From Promethearchaeia archaeon (lineage in GTDB: Archaea > Asgardarchaeota > Lokiarchaeia > Sigyniarchaeales > SOKP01), in contig JAWOFX010000074.1 of assembly GCA_046497275.1 (NCBI GenBank), forward strand, positions 1 to 17,069: a stretch of DNA of 17,069 nt. Direction: 5' to 3'. The position numbers and the translations under genes are program-made. Every line of letters starts with the position of its first letter. Within the stretch, counting starts at the first letter, position 1. The notes beneath the pieces are model-generated. The model saw only the letters and a program-made list of their open reading frames with translations. It was not told where the DNA came from and ran no database searches. Of the stretch, positions 429 through 14,428 are shown in pieces.

Positions 429-1193
429 TCATATAAATTTCCCATGTTTTCCTTTTCCCTTGGAAAAATTGTTGCTTCCTTCCAAATATTCTCCACTCGC
501 AAGTGTTTTTAAACCATATTCAAATTCATTTTTCATAGCTTCTTTTATACTCATACCAAATTGCTCATATGCTGATAAACGATCATTTCTCATACAAGTT
601 TGTGGAAATTTAGCTATTTCTAAAGCTAATTTCTCTGATTCTTTTCGTGAATTCCCATCTTCAACAATTCTATTTGCCAATCCCCAATTTAAGGCTTCTT
701 CAGCCCCAATATCACGTCCAGTCAAAATCATGTCTAATGCCCTACTCAATCCTATAAGTCTAGGTAATCTAACCGTTCCTCCATCAATTAATGGCACACC
801 AAATCTTCTACAAAAAACACCAAAAATCGCTGATTCTTCCATAACACGTAAATCACACCAAAGAGCTAATTCAAGCCCCCCTGCTACGGCATATCCAGAA
901 ACTGCCGCAATAACAGGCTTAGATAACATCATACAACTAGGTCCCATTGGAGCATCTCCTTCCTTCTGTATTCTATTTGTTTCTCCCTCTGCTATCGCTT
1001 TCAGATTCGCTCCAGCACAAAAATTTCCCTCTGATCCCCATAATACTGCAACTAAAGCATCATCATCCTTTTCAAAGTTTCGAAATGCCTCAGCAAGTTT
1101 TTGTGCACTTTTTTTGTCAATTGCATTTCTTACTTCTGGATTTTTAATTATTACTGTGTAGATAGGATAATCCTTTTCTATTTCTATTGACAT
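429..1193 (-). CDS. Enoyl-CoA hydratase/isomerase (crotonase superfamily)
   Basis: 254 aa. Contains VRNAID, oxyanion-hole segments FCAGANLK and AVAGGLELALWCDLR, and GLSRALDMILTGR. Full crotonase length. Confidence 0.95.
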   Translation of the reverse strand: MSIEIEKDYPIYTVIIKNPEVRNAIDKKSAQKLAEAFRNFEKDDDALVAVLWGSEGNFCAGANLKAIAEGETNRIQKEGDAPMGPSCMMLSKPVIAAVSGYAVAGGLELALWCDLRVMEESAIFGVFCRRFGVPLIDGGTVRLPRLIGLSRALDMILTGRDIGAEEALNWGLANRIVEDGNSRKESEKLALEIAKFPQTCMRNDRLSAYEQFGMSIKEAMKNEFEYGLKTLASGEYLEGSNNFSKGKGKHGKFI

Positions 1194-1283: not shown

Positions 1284-2624
1284 CTAATATTTAGTGAACT
1301 TTCTGATGTAATATACAGCAGAAATTAAAATACCGACTAGGATTGGAATGGTTATAGCTAAAAAGAGTGGCATATTAGAAAGGATAATTTCAAAAAGATT
1401 GATGTCTTGGGCTATACTGTATATTTCTAAAATTGGTCCAATGATTGCTATAATGGTAAAGATTTTAACAAATCGATTTAGTACTTCAGAACGTTTTTGA
1501 GTTAATTCCTCCAATTTCTCATTAACTTCAGATGTTAATAATGCATTTTTCTCTCGTAAAGTCTCCAACATAGGAGTATAATACCACTCGTTATCAATAT
1601 TACGCCACATTATCACTGAACTAGGACTTAAGTTTATTATAGAATCTTTCAGAGTTAATAAAAATAATTCCAGTTGATCGGATAATTTCTTTAAGGAAGC
1701 GAGTTCTGCCTCCAATTCCTTAATCCTGGGTTCACTCTTTCTCTTTGTTTTGAATTTAGCAAACTCGTTGAATAATATCGTATCTAATAAACTAGTGGCA
1801 GCATAATAATATTCAGCAATTTCTATTACCCTTTCCAATCTTATATCTTTCGGTCGATTATTTCTATTATAAATATAGAGAGAAAAATTAAAAGAGGGAT
1901 ATACTTGAGCATATTCATTCAAGGAACAATTACGAGGTCCCTCCATTTGAGATGAAAAGAGGACGTCTTTATAACGATTATAATCCTCTTGAGATATAGG
2001 GTTGTTTGTATCTAATTCAAAAAAAAATATTCTATGATACCATAAGCAAGATCGAATAGGTAGATAATCAAGGCTTTTAATCTTTAATTCTTGACTGATT
2101 TCCTCATAGGAATCAAGAGGAATCATTTCTTCTTCGAGAACTTTTCTTAAATCATTGGTATCATTTTCAATAATCGGATTTAAAATATCACATAATTCAG
2201 ATGTAAAACGTTCTACCAATTCTCTATATTCTTTCACTTCAAATTCCCGGTTTAGATTGACATCGACCTTAGCTCGGAATGTACCAGCACCATAATCATG
2301 AAAAAATAATAGGATTCTTTGAATATCAAAATTAATTCCTTCAAATTCAATTGATCTTTCGATATTAGTGAAGTTCTTACCTATTAAAGAAGGAGGGACC
2401 ATAGTAGTACCACCATATACGGATGAAAATTCTACATCCCACAAAACCTCTCCTTTGTCATCATTTTCGATAAACCATTCTTTTTCATTTGCTTGTTGGA
2501 AGTGTTTAATTATAGAATTTTGAATTTTTGTATATCCTAAATTAATTAAATTGGATGAATCTATGAAGAATCCCGTATAGAATGGTCCGATAAATATTAC
2601 TTTATATTTTCCTTTTATCGTCAT
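1284..2624 (-). CDS. Hypothetical membrane protein with CorA-like architecture (soluble N-domain, long helices, two C-terminal TM segments, no GMN motif)
   Basis: 446 aa ORF. Long amphipathic or coiled-coil helices (IKELEAELASLKKLSDQLELFL, LETLREKNALLTSEVNEKLEELTQKRSEVLNRF) precede two hydrophobic segments (about residues 385-404 and 419-439) and a basic tail RKFTKY. The CDS is secure; the CorA-like call is inference. Confidence 0.6.
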   Translation of the reverse strand: MTIKGKYKVIFIGPFYTGFFIDSSNLINLGYTKIQNSIIKHFQQANEKEWFIENDDKGEVLWDVEFSSVYGGTTMVPPSLIGKNFTNIERSIEFEGINFDIQRILLFFHDYGAGTFRAKVDVNLNREFEVKEYRELVERFTSELCDILNPIIENDTNDLRKVLEEEMIPLDSYEEISQELKIKSLDYLPIRSCLWYHRIFFFELDTNNPISQEDYNRYKDVLFSSQMEGPRNCSLNEYAQVYPSFNFSLYIYNRNNRPKDIRLERVIEIAEYYYAATSLLDTILFNEFAKFKTKRKSEPRIKELEAELASLKKLSDQLELFLLTLKDSIINLSPSSVIMWRNIDNEWYYTPMLETLREKNALLTSEVNEKLEELTQKRSEVLNRFVKIFTIIAIIGPILEIYSIAQDINLFEIILSNMPLFLAITIPILVGILISAVYYIRKFTKY

Positions 2625-3367: not shown

Positions 3368-4459
3368 TTATTTGGCTGTAAGTAAATCGCTCATTTCTAA
3401 AAATGTGCTTGTCCTCATCAACGCAGCTTTTAGGAATTGAAAACCTATATCGTATGTAGAACCATCGCCGCCGATATGAATCACATAGGGGATCTCCTCA
3501 TCCATAGTTTCCCCAAACAAGCCCTTTCTCTTAAGGATTTTATATGATGTCGACAGTGCATCAGCGACCGTTGCTCCAGACTCGAACAAATGATGTACCC
3601 ACGGCACTTTCCAAGAGGTCACATTATCTTTCGAAGTCGATACTTCGGAACAGCTTGTATTGTTTACATAAATCATATTATTTCCCGCAACTTGATAAGC
3701 TGCTGTGGCCATTTGGAATAGAACCATTCCTGCTCCACATCCCGGACAGAGACCATGTCCCGGTAGGAGATGCTCTTGAGGCTTCAGTTCTTTCCGATCA
3801 ATACGGTACACATCGTTAGGTTTCTCAGGTCCGAATTGCTCTATAAGTTTTTTCACTTTACTATTTCTCTGTTCTGTACTGAATATTATCTCATTTATCT
3901 CTTTCTCTCTAAATTTTGGTTTGAATAAGTGTCGAAATCGCCCCATGGATTGTAGATATTCTGTAAATGTGTCTTTATCTACGTCAAGACCCCGATAATA
4001 GGAAAAGCTAGGCATTCCCTCTTCAACTCGGATAGTATATAATGGCCAATAACCAGAATCGGTTGCGAGTTTTGAGATCTTAACTGCATCCTTTGCGTCA
4101 TGTCTCCACCCTCGCATACAGTCAGAATATGCTTGAATAAAAGCCGAGCCATCTGTTTTCAATGCTTCCATTATTTTTCCCATTAAATCAATTGGATACG
4201 CAGGATTTACTGTTGCTAAAAATAACTTTTTCGCTCCATAAAATGCAAAGGGGGTGACTAAATCTTGTTTGAGTCCAACTTTGCCCGGAATCTTTTCTCC
4301 AGCCGGTCCCGTCGTGGTGCTTGCGAATGGGGGTGTGGCCCCTGATTCCTGTATACCTGTATTCATAAAGGCTTCATTATCATAGTTTAAGAATAGAACA
4401 TTGCATTTTTCAGTTCGAGCGAGAATATCCTCCATTTTAATTATATTTCGTTCTGACAT
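3368..4459 (-). CDS. porB: 2-oxoacid (pyruvate/2-ketoisovalerate-type):ferredoxin oxidoreductase beta subunit, circularly permuted
   Basis: 363 aa containing all PorB motifs in swapped order. Residues 20-200 carry YDNEAFMNTGIQ, STTTGPAG, DCMRGW, GYWPLY and GRFRHLF. Residues 229-349 carry PGHGLCPGCG, NTSCSEV, WKVPWVH and IGGDGSTYDIGFQ. Confidence 0.93.
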   Translation of the reverse strand: MSERNIIKMEDILARTEKCNVLFLNYDNEAFMNTGIQESGATPPFASTTTGPAGEKIPGKVGLKQDLVTPFAFYGAKKLFLATVNPAYPIDLMGKIMEALKTDGSAFIQAYSDCMRGWRHDAKDAVKISKLATDSGYWPLYTIRVEEGMPSFSYYRGLDVDKDTFTEYLQSMGRFRHLFKPKFREKEINEIIFSTEQRNSKVKKLIEQFGPEKPNDVYRIDRKELKPQEHLLPGHGLCPGCGAGMVLFQMATAAYQVAGNNMIYVNNTSCSEVSTSKDNVTSWKVPWVHHLFESGATVADALSTSYKILKRKGLFGETMDEEIPYVIHIGGDGSTYDIGFQFLKAALMRTSTFLEMSDLLTAK

Positions 4460-5069: not shown

Positions 5070-5315
5070 TTGACTAAAGGAACAGTAAAATGGTTTGACA
5101 ACCGCAAAGGCTACGGATTTATTAACTCTGAAGACGGAGAAGATGTATTTGTTCATTACACTGCTATTGAAGGTGATGACGATAACTATAAATCTTTAAA
5201 TGAAGAAGATAAAGTGGAGTTTAAGGTTGTAGAAGGAAAGAAAGGTCCTCAAGCGGAAAATGTCGAAGTAACAGAAAGAGCACCTCAAAAAAGTAGAGGC
5301 AGCTTTCGCTTTTAA
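5070..5315 (+). CDS. csp: Cold-shock domain protein with short basic/aromatic C-terminal tail
   Basis: TTG start. Contains GTVKWFD, RNP1 KGYGFI, RNP2 VFVHY and [10 protein letters not shown], followed by the tail [14 protein letters not shown]. Confidence 0.96.
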
Positions 5316-5877: not shown

Positions 5878-7092
5878 TCACATATTTATTCCATATATTT
5901 TATCTTTGGTTTCACGAACGCCCAGATACATATAGAGCTTGCCGTTCATATCATTCACACTTTCCATTTTTCTTTTTGCGACAGCCAATTCATCCCTAGT
6001 GACATCCCTTCCACCTAAACCAACTATAAAACTTCTGAAAAGTGTTCCTAATGGATACAAAGCAGAAGCTACTGACATTGAAAACGGAGGTAACATTCCA
6101 TTAAGCGAATCTGATTTTTCGAGTATAATTAATTTTTCTAACCCATGATCTTCCACGAGTTTTCGTAATTTTTCATACGGAAATGGTCTGAATGCACGAA
6201 TTTTAATTAAGCCTACATCGGGATTTTTGGTCATCCAACTAATAATATTTCCTGACATAGAACCCATTGTTACAAAAGCCATCTTAGAAGAATTATCCAA
6301 ATTATAGGTTTCGATCAGATTGTATTCTCGTCCGGTGGCCTTTTCGAACCGTTCAAACGCATCTTGCATGATATCTAATACGGGTTCTTTATCGACATCT
6401 AAACTTTTTCGAAACTCCATAAAATAACTTGGAGTGACAATTCCACCCCACGTTCCGGGTTTTTTAGGAGTAATTCTATGTCGTGGCTTTTTAGGTGTTA
6501 ATTTTCTAACAGTTTCATCTGGAATTAGTGTAACATTTTGAACAGAATGGGAAATAATAAATCCATCATGGACAAACATGGTTGGAAATAATGAGTCCTC
6601 AGAAATCATTACAGATAAAATTGCAGCATCATATGTTTCTTGAACATTCTCAGAGACTATGCAATTCCATCCAATTTCGGAATTTGTTTCTGTAAATTCC
6701 CACGTATTCCAAATGGATAAATTCGGAGAATTAAATGCTCTCGCACTTATCATCATTGTTAAGGGAAGTCTCCATCCAACAGCCATTGGAAGAGCTTCAG
6801 TCATTAATAAATATCCTTGCGATGCAGTCGCTGTGAATGTTCGCGCTCCAGTAGCACAAGCAGCTGTAGAATAGCTCATGGCAGCTAATTCAGACTCGAC
6901 ATTTATAAAGGCCGCTTCTAATCTCCCTTGATGGACAACGTCAGATAACCCTTCTACTGCTTGGGTTTGCGGTGTAATTGGAAACGCGCAGATTACATCA
7001 GGATCCGTTTGGGTAACTCCTCCCGCTACCGCATAATTCCCAATCATAGTGGTTTTAATTGGCTCTTTAATTTCTGCAAAAAAAAGCTTCAT
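5878..7092 (-). CDS. porA: 2-oxoacid:ferredoxin oxidoreductase alpha subunit
   Basis: 404 aa. Contains GNYAVA, AFPITPQT (canonical YPITP), VESE with the catalytic Glu, FTATASQG, MFVHDGFIISH, and the C-terminal transketolase-like domain IKIRAFRPFP...FIVGLGGRDVT. Pyruvate versus branched-chain specificity cannot be determined by eye. Confidence 0.95.
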   Translation of the reverse strand: MKLFFAEIKEPIKTTMIGNYAVAGGVTQTDPDVICAFPITPQTQAVEGLSDVVHQGRLEAAFINVESELAAMSYSTAACATGARTFTATASQGYLLMTEALPMAVGWRLPLTMMISARAFNSPNLSIWNTWEFTETNSEIGWNCIVSENVQETYDAAILSVMISEDSLFPTMFVHDGFIISHSVQNVTLIPDETVRKLTPKKPRHRITPKKPGTWGGIVTPSYFMEFRKSLDVDKEPVLDIMQDAFERFEKATGREYNLIETYNLDNSSKMAFVTMGSMSGNIISWMTKNPDVGLIKIRAFRPFPYEKLRKLVEDHGLEKLIILEKSDSLNGMLPPFSMSVASALYPLGTLFRSFIVGLGGRDVTRDELAVAKRKMESVNDMNGKLYMYLGVRETKDKIYGINM

Positions 7093-9435: not shown

Positions 9436-9618
9436 ATGGAAGGACAAATCAATTTTGAAGATTTGGATTTGGAATTTGGATTTTCATGCATGCCCGAACG
9501 ATTGCACTATTTTAATAAAGAGGAAAATGAGTTTCGAATGGAAGTTCGTAAATGGTGCAAGGAAAATGTGGCGCCGGTTCTGGAAAGGATCCATAAGGCC
9601 ACAAACCGTGCGGGATGA
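9436..9618 (+). pseudogene. Acyl-CoA dehydrogenase N-terminal fragment
   Basis: YFNKEENEFRMEVRKWCKENVAPVLERI matches the first helix of acyl-CoA dehydrogenases. The frame ends at TGA 9616-9618 after about 60 codons. Confidence 0.75.
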
Positions 9619-9805
9619 TGACACTATTAGAACAATAATCATTACTGGAACGGGCAAAGCATTCTCGGCAAGGGAAGATAAAAAAAAATTTAAAGAAAGT
9701 ATTGAAAATGGGATCCCAGGACAATTTATGGACGATTTAACAAAAGATCTTTATAAAATAGCAGAGAGATTGGAGCAATATGCTGAAAATGCGAAAAATA
9801 AATAA
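9608..9805 (+). pseudogene. Internal enoyl-CoA hydratase (crotonase) fragment
   Basis: In the +1 frame relative to the ACAD fragment: RDDDTIRTIIITGTGKAFSAREDKKKF, matching the crotonase D-x-x-(V/I)R-x-IIITG-x-GKAFSAG-x-D motif with AGG (Arg) at the Gly position. It ends before the KPVIAAVNG segment. Confidence 0.8.
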
Positions 9806-12752: not shown

Positions 12753-13754
12753 TTAAGTACCTTCTTGTGTTTCTTCAGGGATGGCACATGAAGCTGGATC
12801 CTGTTTTAATCTTTTTGAAATCGCATTTACAGGACAGATTTCCAAACAATTCTGACATGCTTTACAATGTTCTTTATCTATTCCTGCCATGTGATACTTT
12901 CCATCATCACCTTTTTTTCTCAGTATGGCAAAATCAGGACAAATAAACCAACATTGAGCACAATCAGTACAAGTTTCTTCATCCCAAATCATTTCATATT
13001 CTCCCCATGACCCTGTATTTACTTGATCACTCCCAACTTCAATTACTTCCTCATCGCAATACCATACACCAGCTTTATCGACTTCTTTATATCCAGGTAA
13101 TCCCAATTCTACTTGTTGCCAATCTATTTTGGTATCAACAGAAAAGTCAATATTTTTATTAATTTCATAAACACATGTTTCTTCAATAGCTTGCTTTATT
13201 GCTGCAATATTTTTAGCTGCGATCTCATCTTTAAAGCGACGCATAACTGCATCTGATAATTCTTCAAATGAAAATAGATGTGAAACCCTTACTAATGCAC
13301 CTAAGATTATAGTATTTGTAATATTTCGCCCTAAAACCTCCAAAGCAATTCGAGTAGCATCGATCGTAGCTACATTAATATCTGTTCTTTCTACGATATC
13401 TTGTATTTCTTTCTGATTCATTGTAGTATTAACAATTAACCATCCTCCTTCGGGTACTCCCGCCGTTACCTCGACCTCTGTGAGAAGAGAAGGATCTAAT
13501 ACAGAAACAAAATGAGGGGCATACACTTGTTCATTGGATCTAATTAAATCATCATTTAAACTAAGGCGAACATAGCTTTCAGTTGGGCTACCCATACGTT
13601 CTGCCCCAAATCGTGGTTGACAAATTCCATATCCATAAAACGCCTCAACACATAAATTTGATGCTGTCACTCCACCTTGGCCCCCTCTTGCATGAAATCG
13701 AAGATTAACACAATTTTCCTTTAATAGCTCTTTCATTTCCTCAGATGAATACAT
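12753..13754 (-). CDS. porC: 2-oxoacid:ferredoxin oxidoreductase gamma-delta fusion subunit
   Basis: 333 aa. The gamma domain has RFHARGGQGGVTA, FGAERMGSP, IDATRIALEVLGRNITNTIILGA and KNIAAI. It is followed by the delta domain NTGSW with two ferredoxin motifs, CTDCAQCWFICP and CKACQNCLEICP. Confidence 0.95.
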   Translation of the reverse strand: MYSSEEMKELLKENCVNLRFHARGGQGGVTASNLCVEAFYGYGICQPRFGAERMGSPTESYVRLSLNDDLIRSNEQVYAPHFVSVLDPSLLTEVEVTAGVPEGGWLIVNTTMNQKEIQDIVERTDINVATIDATRIALEVLGRNITNTIILGALVRVSHLFSFEELSDAVMRRFKDEIAAKNIAAIKQAIEETCVYEINKNIDFSVDTKIDWQQVELGLPGYKEVDKAGVWYCDEEVIEVGSDQVNTGSWGEYEMIWDEETCTDCAQCWFICPDFAILRKKGDDGKYHMAGIDKEHCKACQNCLEICPVNAISKRLKQDPASCAIPEETQEGT

Positions 13755-13921: not shown

Positions 13922-14428
13922 TTATTCATTTTTCCCATTATCTACTGCTTTTATATAATCTGGTTTGAATGTAGTTCTAAGCATATTAGAATTCCCAGAA
14001 GAGATTGATTTTCCGTTCATATCATATATCTCTGCCACTGCGTGAATGATATTACGTCCTTCTCTCTTTATTTTTGCGATTACTTTGACTTTCTCCCCAA
14101 CTTTAACTTTTCCCAAATAATCAATGTGAAAATCAATAGTGATTGGAAAACCTTCATACCCTAATGTTGCAGTGGTCATTCCAATTGTATCATCCATCAT
14201 TCCGCATTGCATACCTCCATGTAATAATCCTGTGGGATTTGCCATCTCAGGTCTCACTTCAAACTCAATCTCGATTAAACCTCGTTTAGCTTGAATCAAC
14301 TCCCCATTTAACCATTTGGAAAAAGGGGGGATTCCTGGAAAAGATCCAATGCTTTTTCCCTTGGCAGCGTTAAATAATTTAATTACTCTTTCTGACCTTT
14401 CTTGTATCTCTTTTTCTTTTGATGACAT
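13922..14428 (-). CDS. PaaI/hotdog-fold acyl-CoA thioesterase
   Basis: Contains NPTGLLHGGMQCGMMDDTIG (HGG motif plus catalytic Asp) and TIDFHIDYL. Confidence 0.93.
   Translation of the reverse strand: MSSKEKEIQERSERVIKLFNAAKGKSIGSFPGIPPFSKWLNGELIQAKRGLIEIEFEVRPEMANPTGLLHGGMQCGMMDDTIGMTTATLGYEGFPITIDFHIDYLGKVKVGEKVKVIAKIKREGRNIIHAVAEIYDMNGKSISSGNSNMLRTTFKPDYIKAVDNGKNE

Follow-up and report, generated by a model that had tools for sequence, protein, structure and literature searches.

A probable natural circular permutant of the PorB-type 2-oxoacid:ferredoxin oxidoreductase beta subunit in Loki-type Asgard archaea

The 17,069-nucleotide contig JAWOFX010000074.1 of a Promethearchaeia archaeon (assembly GCA_046497275.1), referred to here as the window, carries on its minus strand a complete gene (positions 3368-4459) for a beta subunit of a 2-oxoacid:ferredoxin oxidoreductase (OFOR) in which the two halves of the protein stand in reversed order. 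We put at roughly 85% the probability that this gene is a genuine natural circular permutant of a PorB-type beta subunit, with a single origin, whose product probably folds, pairs and works as that of an ordinary OFOR. The OFORs are ancient enzymes that are central to anaerobic carbon metabolism. PorB carries the PP domain, which binds thiamine diphosphate (ThDP), and the proximal [4Fe-4S] cluster, and the GDG...N motif of that domain is, to our knowledge, the signature of every ThDP enzyme.

The open reading frame starts with ATG, encodes 363 amino acids (P0001) and contains no internal stops. When aligned with PorB of Methanosarcina acetivorans (9bt4, chain C), residues 226-349 of the window beta matched residues 5-115 of the chain and residues 21-192 matched residues 119-283, and the same crossed two-piece pattern was found with the beta subunit of oxalate oxidoreductase (5c4i, chain C). 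The NCBIfam PorB model NF008819 also matched in two crossed stretches, with residues 1-215 corresponding to profile positions 118-288 and residues 215-363 to positions 5-121, for a total of 214.8 bits, below the cut-off of 405. The Pfam model TPP_enzyme_C matched through profile positions 68-150 only, at residues 14-109. The window beta misses the NF008819 cut-off and an end-to-end match to TPP_enzyme_C because of the permutation itself. With a hidden Markov model (HMM) made from 55 canonical betas, positions ~120-300 fell on residues ~19-208 and positions ~4-125 on residues ~224-354 in 28 of 28 permuted members. The matches of the window beta have E values of 1e-46 to 1e-63, the order is repeated in more than 120 full-length homologues, and the crossed pattern is far beyond chance.

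The initial annotation, made from the letters of the sequence, had described the gene as reversed relative to canonical PorB, with the break inside the ThDP/Mg motif, and both statements were borne out. Aligned separately to PorB, the two halves gave matches that cross, colinearity with canonical PorB was not seen, and the alignments place the break between the GDG (331-333) and DN (27-28) halves of the motif, which now lie at opposite ends of the chain. All of the motifs and residue numbers that it listed were found (NVLFLNYDNEAFMNTGIQ at 21-38, C114, PGHGLCPGCG at 233-242, C270, G331-D332-G333 and AALMR at 345-349), and its further claims of a frame free of stops and frameshifts and of four retained [4Fe-4S] ligands agree with the single uninterrupted frame and with C114, C238, C241 and C270, which align with the cysteines of both 9bt4 chain C and 5c4i chain C. 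By these alignments the break sits in the loop that connects the helix after GDG with the strand leading to DN. In the usual architecture of the PP fold, this helix-to-strand loop would lie at the edge of the sheet and away from ThDP.

The protein can be divided into five parts, all encoded on the minus strand. A new N-terminal extension (residues 1-18; positions 4406-4459) lies outside the canonical PorB HMM, has the family-conserved sequence NIIxxEDLLxR, and was modeled as a strand (residues 4-8) followed by a helix (9-13). The counterpart of the canonical C-terminal half (residues 19-208, HMM positions 122-299; 3836-4405) holds D27, N28, N33, the Fe-S ligand C114 and the motifs GYWPLY and GRFRHLF. 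It is joined by a new linker (residues 209-223; 3791-3835), running from the old C-terminus to the old N-terminus, to the counterpart of the canonical N-terminal half (residues 224-354, HMM positions 7-125; 3398-3790), which holds the Fe-S ligands C238, C241 and C270, G331-D332-G333 and the helix after GDG. Both halves were delimited by profile and structure alignments. The family alignment defines a conserved C-terminal tail of residues ~355-363, which together with the stop codon occupies positions 3368-3397. The linker is in frame and conserved in the family, with Y218 invariant, and a query spanning the junction found a one-piece match in 66 genomes. Its length had been put at roughly 28 residues in the initial annotation; about half of that stretch is the normal C-terminal helix of PorB, and only ~15 residues are new.

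The same order was found in many other sequences. Over 120 protein clusters drawn from NCBI, JGI, ENA and Logan assemblies were colinear with the window beta over 96-100% of the length at 53-98% identity, and a second search, seeded with the copy (L052) from a closed 4.36 Mb genome labeled Candidatus Harpocratesius repetitus, found 178 clusters below 1e-60. One of these 178, a protein of Candidatus Lokiarchaeum ossiferum called hypothetical and encoded on a 6.27 Mb contig of a closed genome, is colinear with the window beta at 52% identity, and four contigs from four samples encode one identical twin protein that is 98% identical to it. When 1.84 billion cluster representatives were searched, the colinear sequences among the matches listed were one full-length protein (54% identical, Helarchaeota) and a few fragments. 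Nearly all of the other matches listed there were in two stretches, with coordinates of the best stretch that fit the canonical order, and a few one-stretch matches covered one half.

An artefact could in principle produce such a gene, through misassembly, through collapse of a tandem repeat, or if the canonical order were restored in the RNA before translation. Nothing but the oddity of the order speaks for this explanation, and we give it next to no weight: one open reading frame runs straight through the junction, the protein sequences of the linker and of both terminal extensions are conserved, and the order recurs in two closed genomes and in independent assemblies numbering in the hundreds. 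Misassembly, which the initial annotation had proposed to check with reads across the junction, is excluded even without read mapping, because the order is the same in independent assemblies, in the two closed genomes and in the four twin contigs. The suggestion that the gene is a natural permutant is likewise upheld by the presence of the same order across Loki-type Asgard genomes, the two closed ones among them.

The residues expected of a working cofactor site are conserved throughout the permuted family. In an alignment of 28 members (53-85% identity) Y26, D27, N28, E29, A30, N33, T34, G35 and Q37 are invariant, as are the four cysteine ligands and G331-D332-G333, and G331-D332-G333 with D27-N28-E29-A30 align with the canonical ThDP/Mg motif GDG...(D)N-x-A/V. 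Selection on the permuted beta is strongly purifying. The window beta and its 98% identical twin (L100) differ by 62 synonymous and 7 non-synonymous changes, giving a ratio of non-synonymous to synonymous rates (dN/dS) of 0.025 at a dS of 0.32, and the other unsaturated pairs of permuted betas have dN/dS values of 0.05-0.07. We therefore predict that the permuted beta is most likely functional. One cluster of permuted betas includes products of 223 and 104 amino acids (P0272 and P0273) from neighboring genes on one contig of Helarchaeota (ACTSR3_09440 and ACTSR3_09445), and this pair may be a split or frameshifted permuted beta.

The permuted beta is accompanied by partner genes of its own. 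A fused gamma-delta gene, an alpha gene and the permuted beta gene are contiguous in about 30 loci and in five whole genomes, with gaps of 0-15 bp or overlaps. In the window, the dedicated alpha (404 amino acids with POR_N and PFOR_II domains) is encoded at 5878-7092 on the minus strand and was recognized by its domains, its orthology and a model of the complex, while the fused gamma-delta (12753-13754, minus strand) was recognized by synteny and by its POR domain and two CxxCxxCxxxCP ferredoxin motifs. The alpha orthologues are 64-94% identical among the carriers, versus 31-36% identity to any other alpha encoded in those genomes. Flanking synteny is also retained in the window, where the order on the minus strand is a zinc and an iron alcohol dehydrogenase, a 4HBT thioesterase, gamma-delta, alpha, beta and an enoyl-CoA hydratase. 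The thioesterase (13922-14428, minus strand) is the operon-upstream neighbor in five related loci, and the enoyl-CoA hydratase (429-1193, minus strand), assigned by its domain and by synteny, is often downstream of the operon in related loci.

Modeling of the protein is consistent with a normal fold. AlphaFold 2, used with the family alignment, gave a compact model with a predicted TM score (pTM) of 0.88 and a mean per-residue confidence (pLDDT) of 80.8, and confidence was low only in loops that normally hold cofactors. Foldseek and VIA-align are sequential structure aligners and cover one half per alignment. One half of the model matched domain VI of pyruvate:ferredoxin oxidoreductase (PFOR), PorB and the oxalate oxidoreductase beta with Z scores of 11-13 over ~170-180 residues (TM score by target 0.51 for 9bt4 chain C), and the other half gave Z scores of about 5; matches to one half only are the behavior expected of a permutant under sequential alignment. 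Modeling of the complex had been proposed in the initial annotation, and the permuted beta could be set on its alpha with a score of 0.76, while the highest-scoring of three controls had 0.00. The pair passed the mark applied to this score, which 58 of 80 solved complexes and 2 of 110 mismatched pairs reach. The runs shared at least 96% of their contacts, the partner had a pLDDT of 84, and the modeled interface is formed by the segment at 224-354 of the beta, through residues 260-349, with residues 59-103 of the alpha. Because OFOR complexes have already been solved, passing the mark shows likeness to them and not binding by the window copy. Together, the two models are consistent with an ordinary fold and with an ordinary contact between alpha and beta.

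Since OFORs assemble as dimers of heteromers and domain swapping is possible in permuted proteins, the first half of one beta chain might pair with the second half of another and give a different quaternary structure. The compactness of the monomer model, the confident and reproducible 1:1 model of alpha and beta, and a short conserved linker that fits closure within one chain all speak for the opposite, and we hold such swapping to be very improbable.

The chain of the permuted beta begins at the beta-strand ending in the Mg/diphosphate ligands D27-N28, traverses the old C-terminal half, the new linker and the old N-terminus, and ends shortly after the GDG331-333 strand and its helix. Most likely it folds as an ordinary PP domain and pairs with the dedicated alpha and the fused gamma-delta. 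The enzyme would then use ThDP to decarboxylate a small 2-oxoacid, with pyruvate or a close analogue as the likeliest candidate, pass the acyl group to CoA and send the electrons via three [4Fe-4S] clusters to ferredoxin. In the beta, D332, N28 and N33 correspond by alignment to D963, T991 and N996 of Desulfovibrio africanus PFOR, and in the alpha, T40, R118, L125 and I127 correspond to its T31, R114, L121 and I123, residues that we take to be Mg and pyruvate contacts. A small, pyruvate-like substrate is our best guess from this comparison, at roughly even odds.

In order to determine the distribution of the permuted form, we surveyed 301 genomes of the phylum with residues 150-275 of the window beta, which span the junction. 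One-piece matches were found in 58 of the 68 genomes of the window's family, in six of the seven genomes of a second family of the same order, and in the sole genome of a third family of the same class. In the other groups, apart from one contig described below, half-matches alone were seen, as canonical genes would give. Some families elsewhere in the Asgard phylum gave weak matches across the junction that contained internal stops; examined as candidate tandem-beta intermediates or decayed permutants, these proved to be canonical operons (L104 and L105) or a canonical beta interrupted by an intein (L106). According to their NCBI titles, the carriers are Promethearchaeota, Promethearchaeia, Lokiarchaeota and Helarchaeota, with a few metagenome-assembled genomes (MAGs) labeled Thor- or Hermodarchaeota. 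With few exceptions, all occurrences of the permuted form fell in a single class of the phylum. No permuted copy of Candidatus Prometheoarchaeum was among the named matches, which does not imply that it is absent there. One further one-piece match came from a 2.8 kb contig (L107; G211:C23:1-2801) assigned to a genome from a distant family. Its gamma-delta, alpha and permuted beta are 75-85% identical to those of the window, and the contig is more likely a mis-binned stray contig than the result of transfer.

For a phylogenetic tree, the permuted halves were put back into canonical order, for the alignment only, and the betas of the window's genome and 53 canonical representatives were added. 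All permuted betas fell into a single clade with a Shimodaira-Hasegawa-like approximate likelihood ratio test (SH-aLRT) value of 100 and a stem length of 0.98. This clade was placed among PorB-like sequences, near clusters that include PorB of Bathyarchaeia, and the genome's own canonical PorBs were not adjacent to it. The monophyly of the permuted clade points to one origin. Circular permutants classically arise when a gene is duplicated and both ends are then lost, and a single event in an ancestor of the Loki-type class, probably by tandem duplication or fusion and then loss of both ends, would account for the present order. A tandem-beta intermediate was not found among the candidates from the junction survey of the 301 genomes.

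Several observations weigh against our reading of the gene as a working permutant of single origin. The window operon is spread over 10.4 kb, with ~5.6 kb between gamma-delta and alpha and 1.4 kb between alpha and beta, and co-expression is therefore not assured. The beta of the twin lineage (L100) is adjoined by the last 126 codons of alpha only. The next-closest relative, at 88% identity (L055, MAG YT6_002), has in its permuted beta, right after NTGIQ (~6090-6130), an insertion of ~31 nt with two stops and a frameshift, which marks either a pseudogene or a fault in the assembly. Ten of the 68 genomes of the family, five of them 99-100% complete, lack a junction match, which means that the enzyme can be dispensed with. 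Two canonical PorAB pairs and three further OFOR betas are encoded in the genome, so the permuted enzyme is an extra Por-type enzyme and not the sole one. With regard to origin, both termini were matched at only ~4-5 canonical positions (HMM ~121-125), a thin trace of duplication, and the BLAST ranks of the two halves against 54 canonical betas were uncorrelated (rho -0.15), with only P0128 and P0131 in both top tens. These ranks were uninformative as to whether the halves had the same or different parents.

The split operon, the truncated alpha beside the twin beta together with a toxin-antitoxin insertion there, the frameshifted relative and the ten genomes that lack the gene are also what would be seen if the window copy were decaying or inactive, its operon torn by insertions and its orphan beta no longer part of an enzyme. 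Yet all three subunit genes are intact in the window, the gamma-delta with both of its CxxCxxCxxxCP motifs, and the beta retains every family-invariant residue. Its terminal branch is ordinary (0.077 vs 0.07 for its neighbor), its dN/dS with the twin is low, as given above, and the alpha orthologue is intact and 94% identical in the other genome of the same genus. We consider decay improbable; judged by its residues, branch length and dN/dS, the window copy shows no decay, although the locus is unstable.

We have also considered whether the permutation is non-neutral, with the conserved termini that flank the two halves of the ThDP/Mg motif forming a new element that alters the loading or holding of the cofactor or the docking of a partner. 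The termini concerned are the N-terminal strand and helix with NIIxxEDLLxR and the lengthened C-terminal helix and tail. If this were true, the Loki-type enzyme would differ from the two canonical PorAB paralogues in cofactor exchange, regulation, stability or substrate range, and its retention beside them on a long stem branch would be explained. We regard the proposal as rather unlikely.

Among proteins of known structure, PorB of M. acetivorans matched the window beta best by sequence (E value 2.3e-46) and was one of its best matches by structure (Z 11.3). The two share the ThDP motif residues, the four cysteine ligands, the C-terminal helix, and alpha and gamma/delta partners. They differ in that the order of residues 5-115 and then 119-283 in PorB is reversed in the window beta, which also has the extra ~15-residue linker, the 18-residue N-terminal extension and a C-terminal tail of ~10 residues, and in that gamma and delta are fused in the window system, whereas the M. 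acetivorans enzyme has four subunits. The beta subunit of the oxalate oxidoreductase of Moorella thermoacetica (5c4i, 5exd and 5exe) was the second-best match (E value 3.5e-45, Z 11.3-11.4, in two crossed pieces) but has the canonical order. The window alpha keeps the T, R, L and I of pyruvate-type enzymes, and oxalate would therefore not be the expected substrate. Domain VI of single-chain PFOR (D. africanus, 1b0p; M. thermoacetica, 6cin) has the same PP fold (Z 12.4-13.2, ~180 residues) but, unlike the window beta, is part of a chain of 1,200 residues and has the canonical order.

Canonical operons from other Asgard classes (L104 and L105, in genomes G277 and G157) have the same layout of fused gamma-delta, alpha and beta as the permuted operons, and their alpha and beta are 33-34% and ~39% identical, respectively, to those of the window, but their beta is in normal order. 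A genome of another Asgard class (G145) encodes a PorB of canonical order and 695 amino acids (L106:741-2828) with an intein (Intein_splicing and LAGLIDADG_3) at YMN|TGIQ in the ThDP motif, and the many open frames of 690-723 amino acids in two other families suggest that a PorB intein is common there. We considered the intein site as a source of the break, but it lies 12 residues past the breakpoint and no link was shown. Across the ThDP superfamily, PYR and PP domains occur in different orders or on different chains. These rearranged enzymes resemble the permuted beta in that the ThDP site is rebuilt from parts scattered in the sequence, but they shuffle whole domains, while in the permuted beta the cut falls within the PP domain, between the parts of its GDG...N motif.

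The permuted beta is a new variant of a known enzyme. The initial annotation knew of no description of it, and we too found none of a permuted OFOR beta, or of a circular permutation within the ThDP PP domain, in the full texts searched, which leave most subscription journals outside, the nearest papers dealing with other matters; NCBI records label the permuted betas hypothetical. As a natural permutant under selection, it shows that a cut at the post-GDG loop is tolerated by the PP domain. Enzymology and protein engineering thereby gain a permutation site that is ready to use, and the protein is a clear example of a fold evolving by permutation in a core enzyme. Family models fail on the rearranged chain, so that reconstructions of metabolism in Loki-type Asgard archaea, a group on which ideas about the host of eukaryogenesis draw, can overlook one of three Por-type enzymes. 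The occurrence of the permuted gene in a genome labeled Candidatus Lokiarchaeum ossiferum, which we take to be a cultured species, makes the claim open to bench testing.

The remaining observations concern the surroundings of the operon. A cold-shock-domain gene (5070-5315, plus strand) lies within the 1.4 kb gap between alpha and beta, genes that abut in most relatives, and the ~5.6 kb block between gamma-delta and alpha holds winged helix-turn-helix, pyrroloquinoline quinone (PQQ)-propeller, B12-radical S-adenosylmethionine, zinc-ribbon and DUF3795 genes. Within this block, an open reading frame of 116 amino acids (9455-9805, plus strand) has a weak match to ECH_2 (E value 5e-4) and may be the relic of an enoyl-CoA hydratase gene. 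The 113 nt 5' of the window beta are common to the twin contig. A promoter 5' of the isolated beta was considered and not accepted, as the AT-richness of the region deprives TATA-like strings of weight, and a search for a miniature inverted-repeat transposable element between alpha and beta gave weak, AT-rich inverted repeats only, which were unconvincing. An apparent alpha-beta fusion of 705 amino acids in another locus (L047) was found to be a frame across a scaffold gap of Ns.

In the twin lineage (L100:6830-11710), a degenerate 135-nt duplicate of part of alpha precedes the truncated alpha, the cold-shock-domain gene and beta, and a PIN/MazE toxin-antitoxin pair that is not present in the window is inserted 3' of beta. 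Between this locus and the window, the segment of the alpha 3' end and the cold-shock-domain gene has a dS of ~0.05, compared with 0.32-0.48 for beta, the enoyl-CoA hydratase gene and a gene for a 446-amino-acid protein, and this low value suggests that the segment was recently exchanged. The 446-amino-acid protein, encoded between beta and the enoyl-CoA hydratase (1284-2624, minus strand), has no Pfam match and a hydrophobic C-terminus, and its gene is conserved in the twin contigs with a dN/dS of 0.076.

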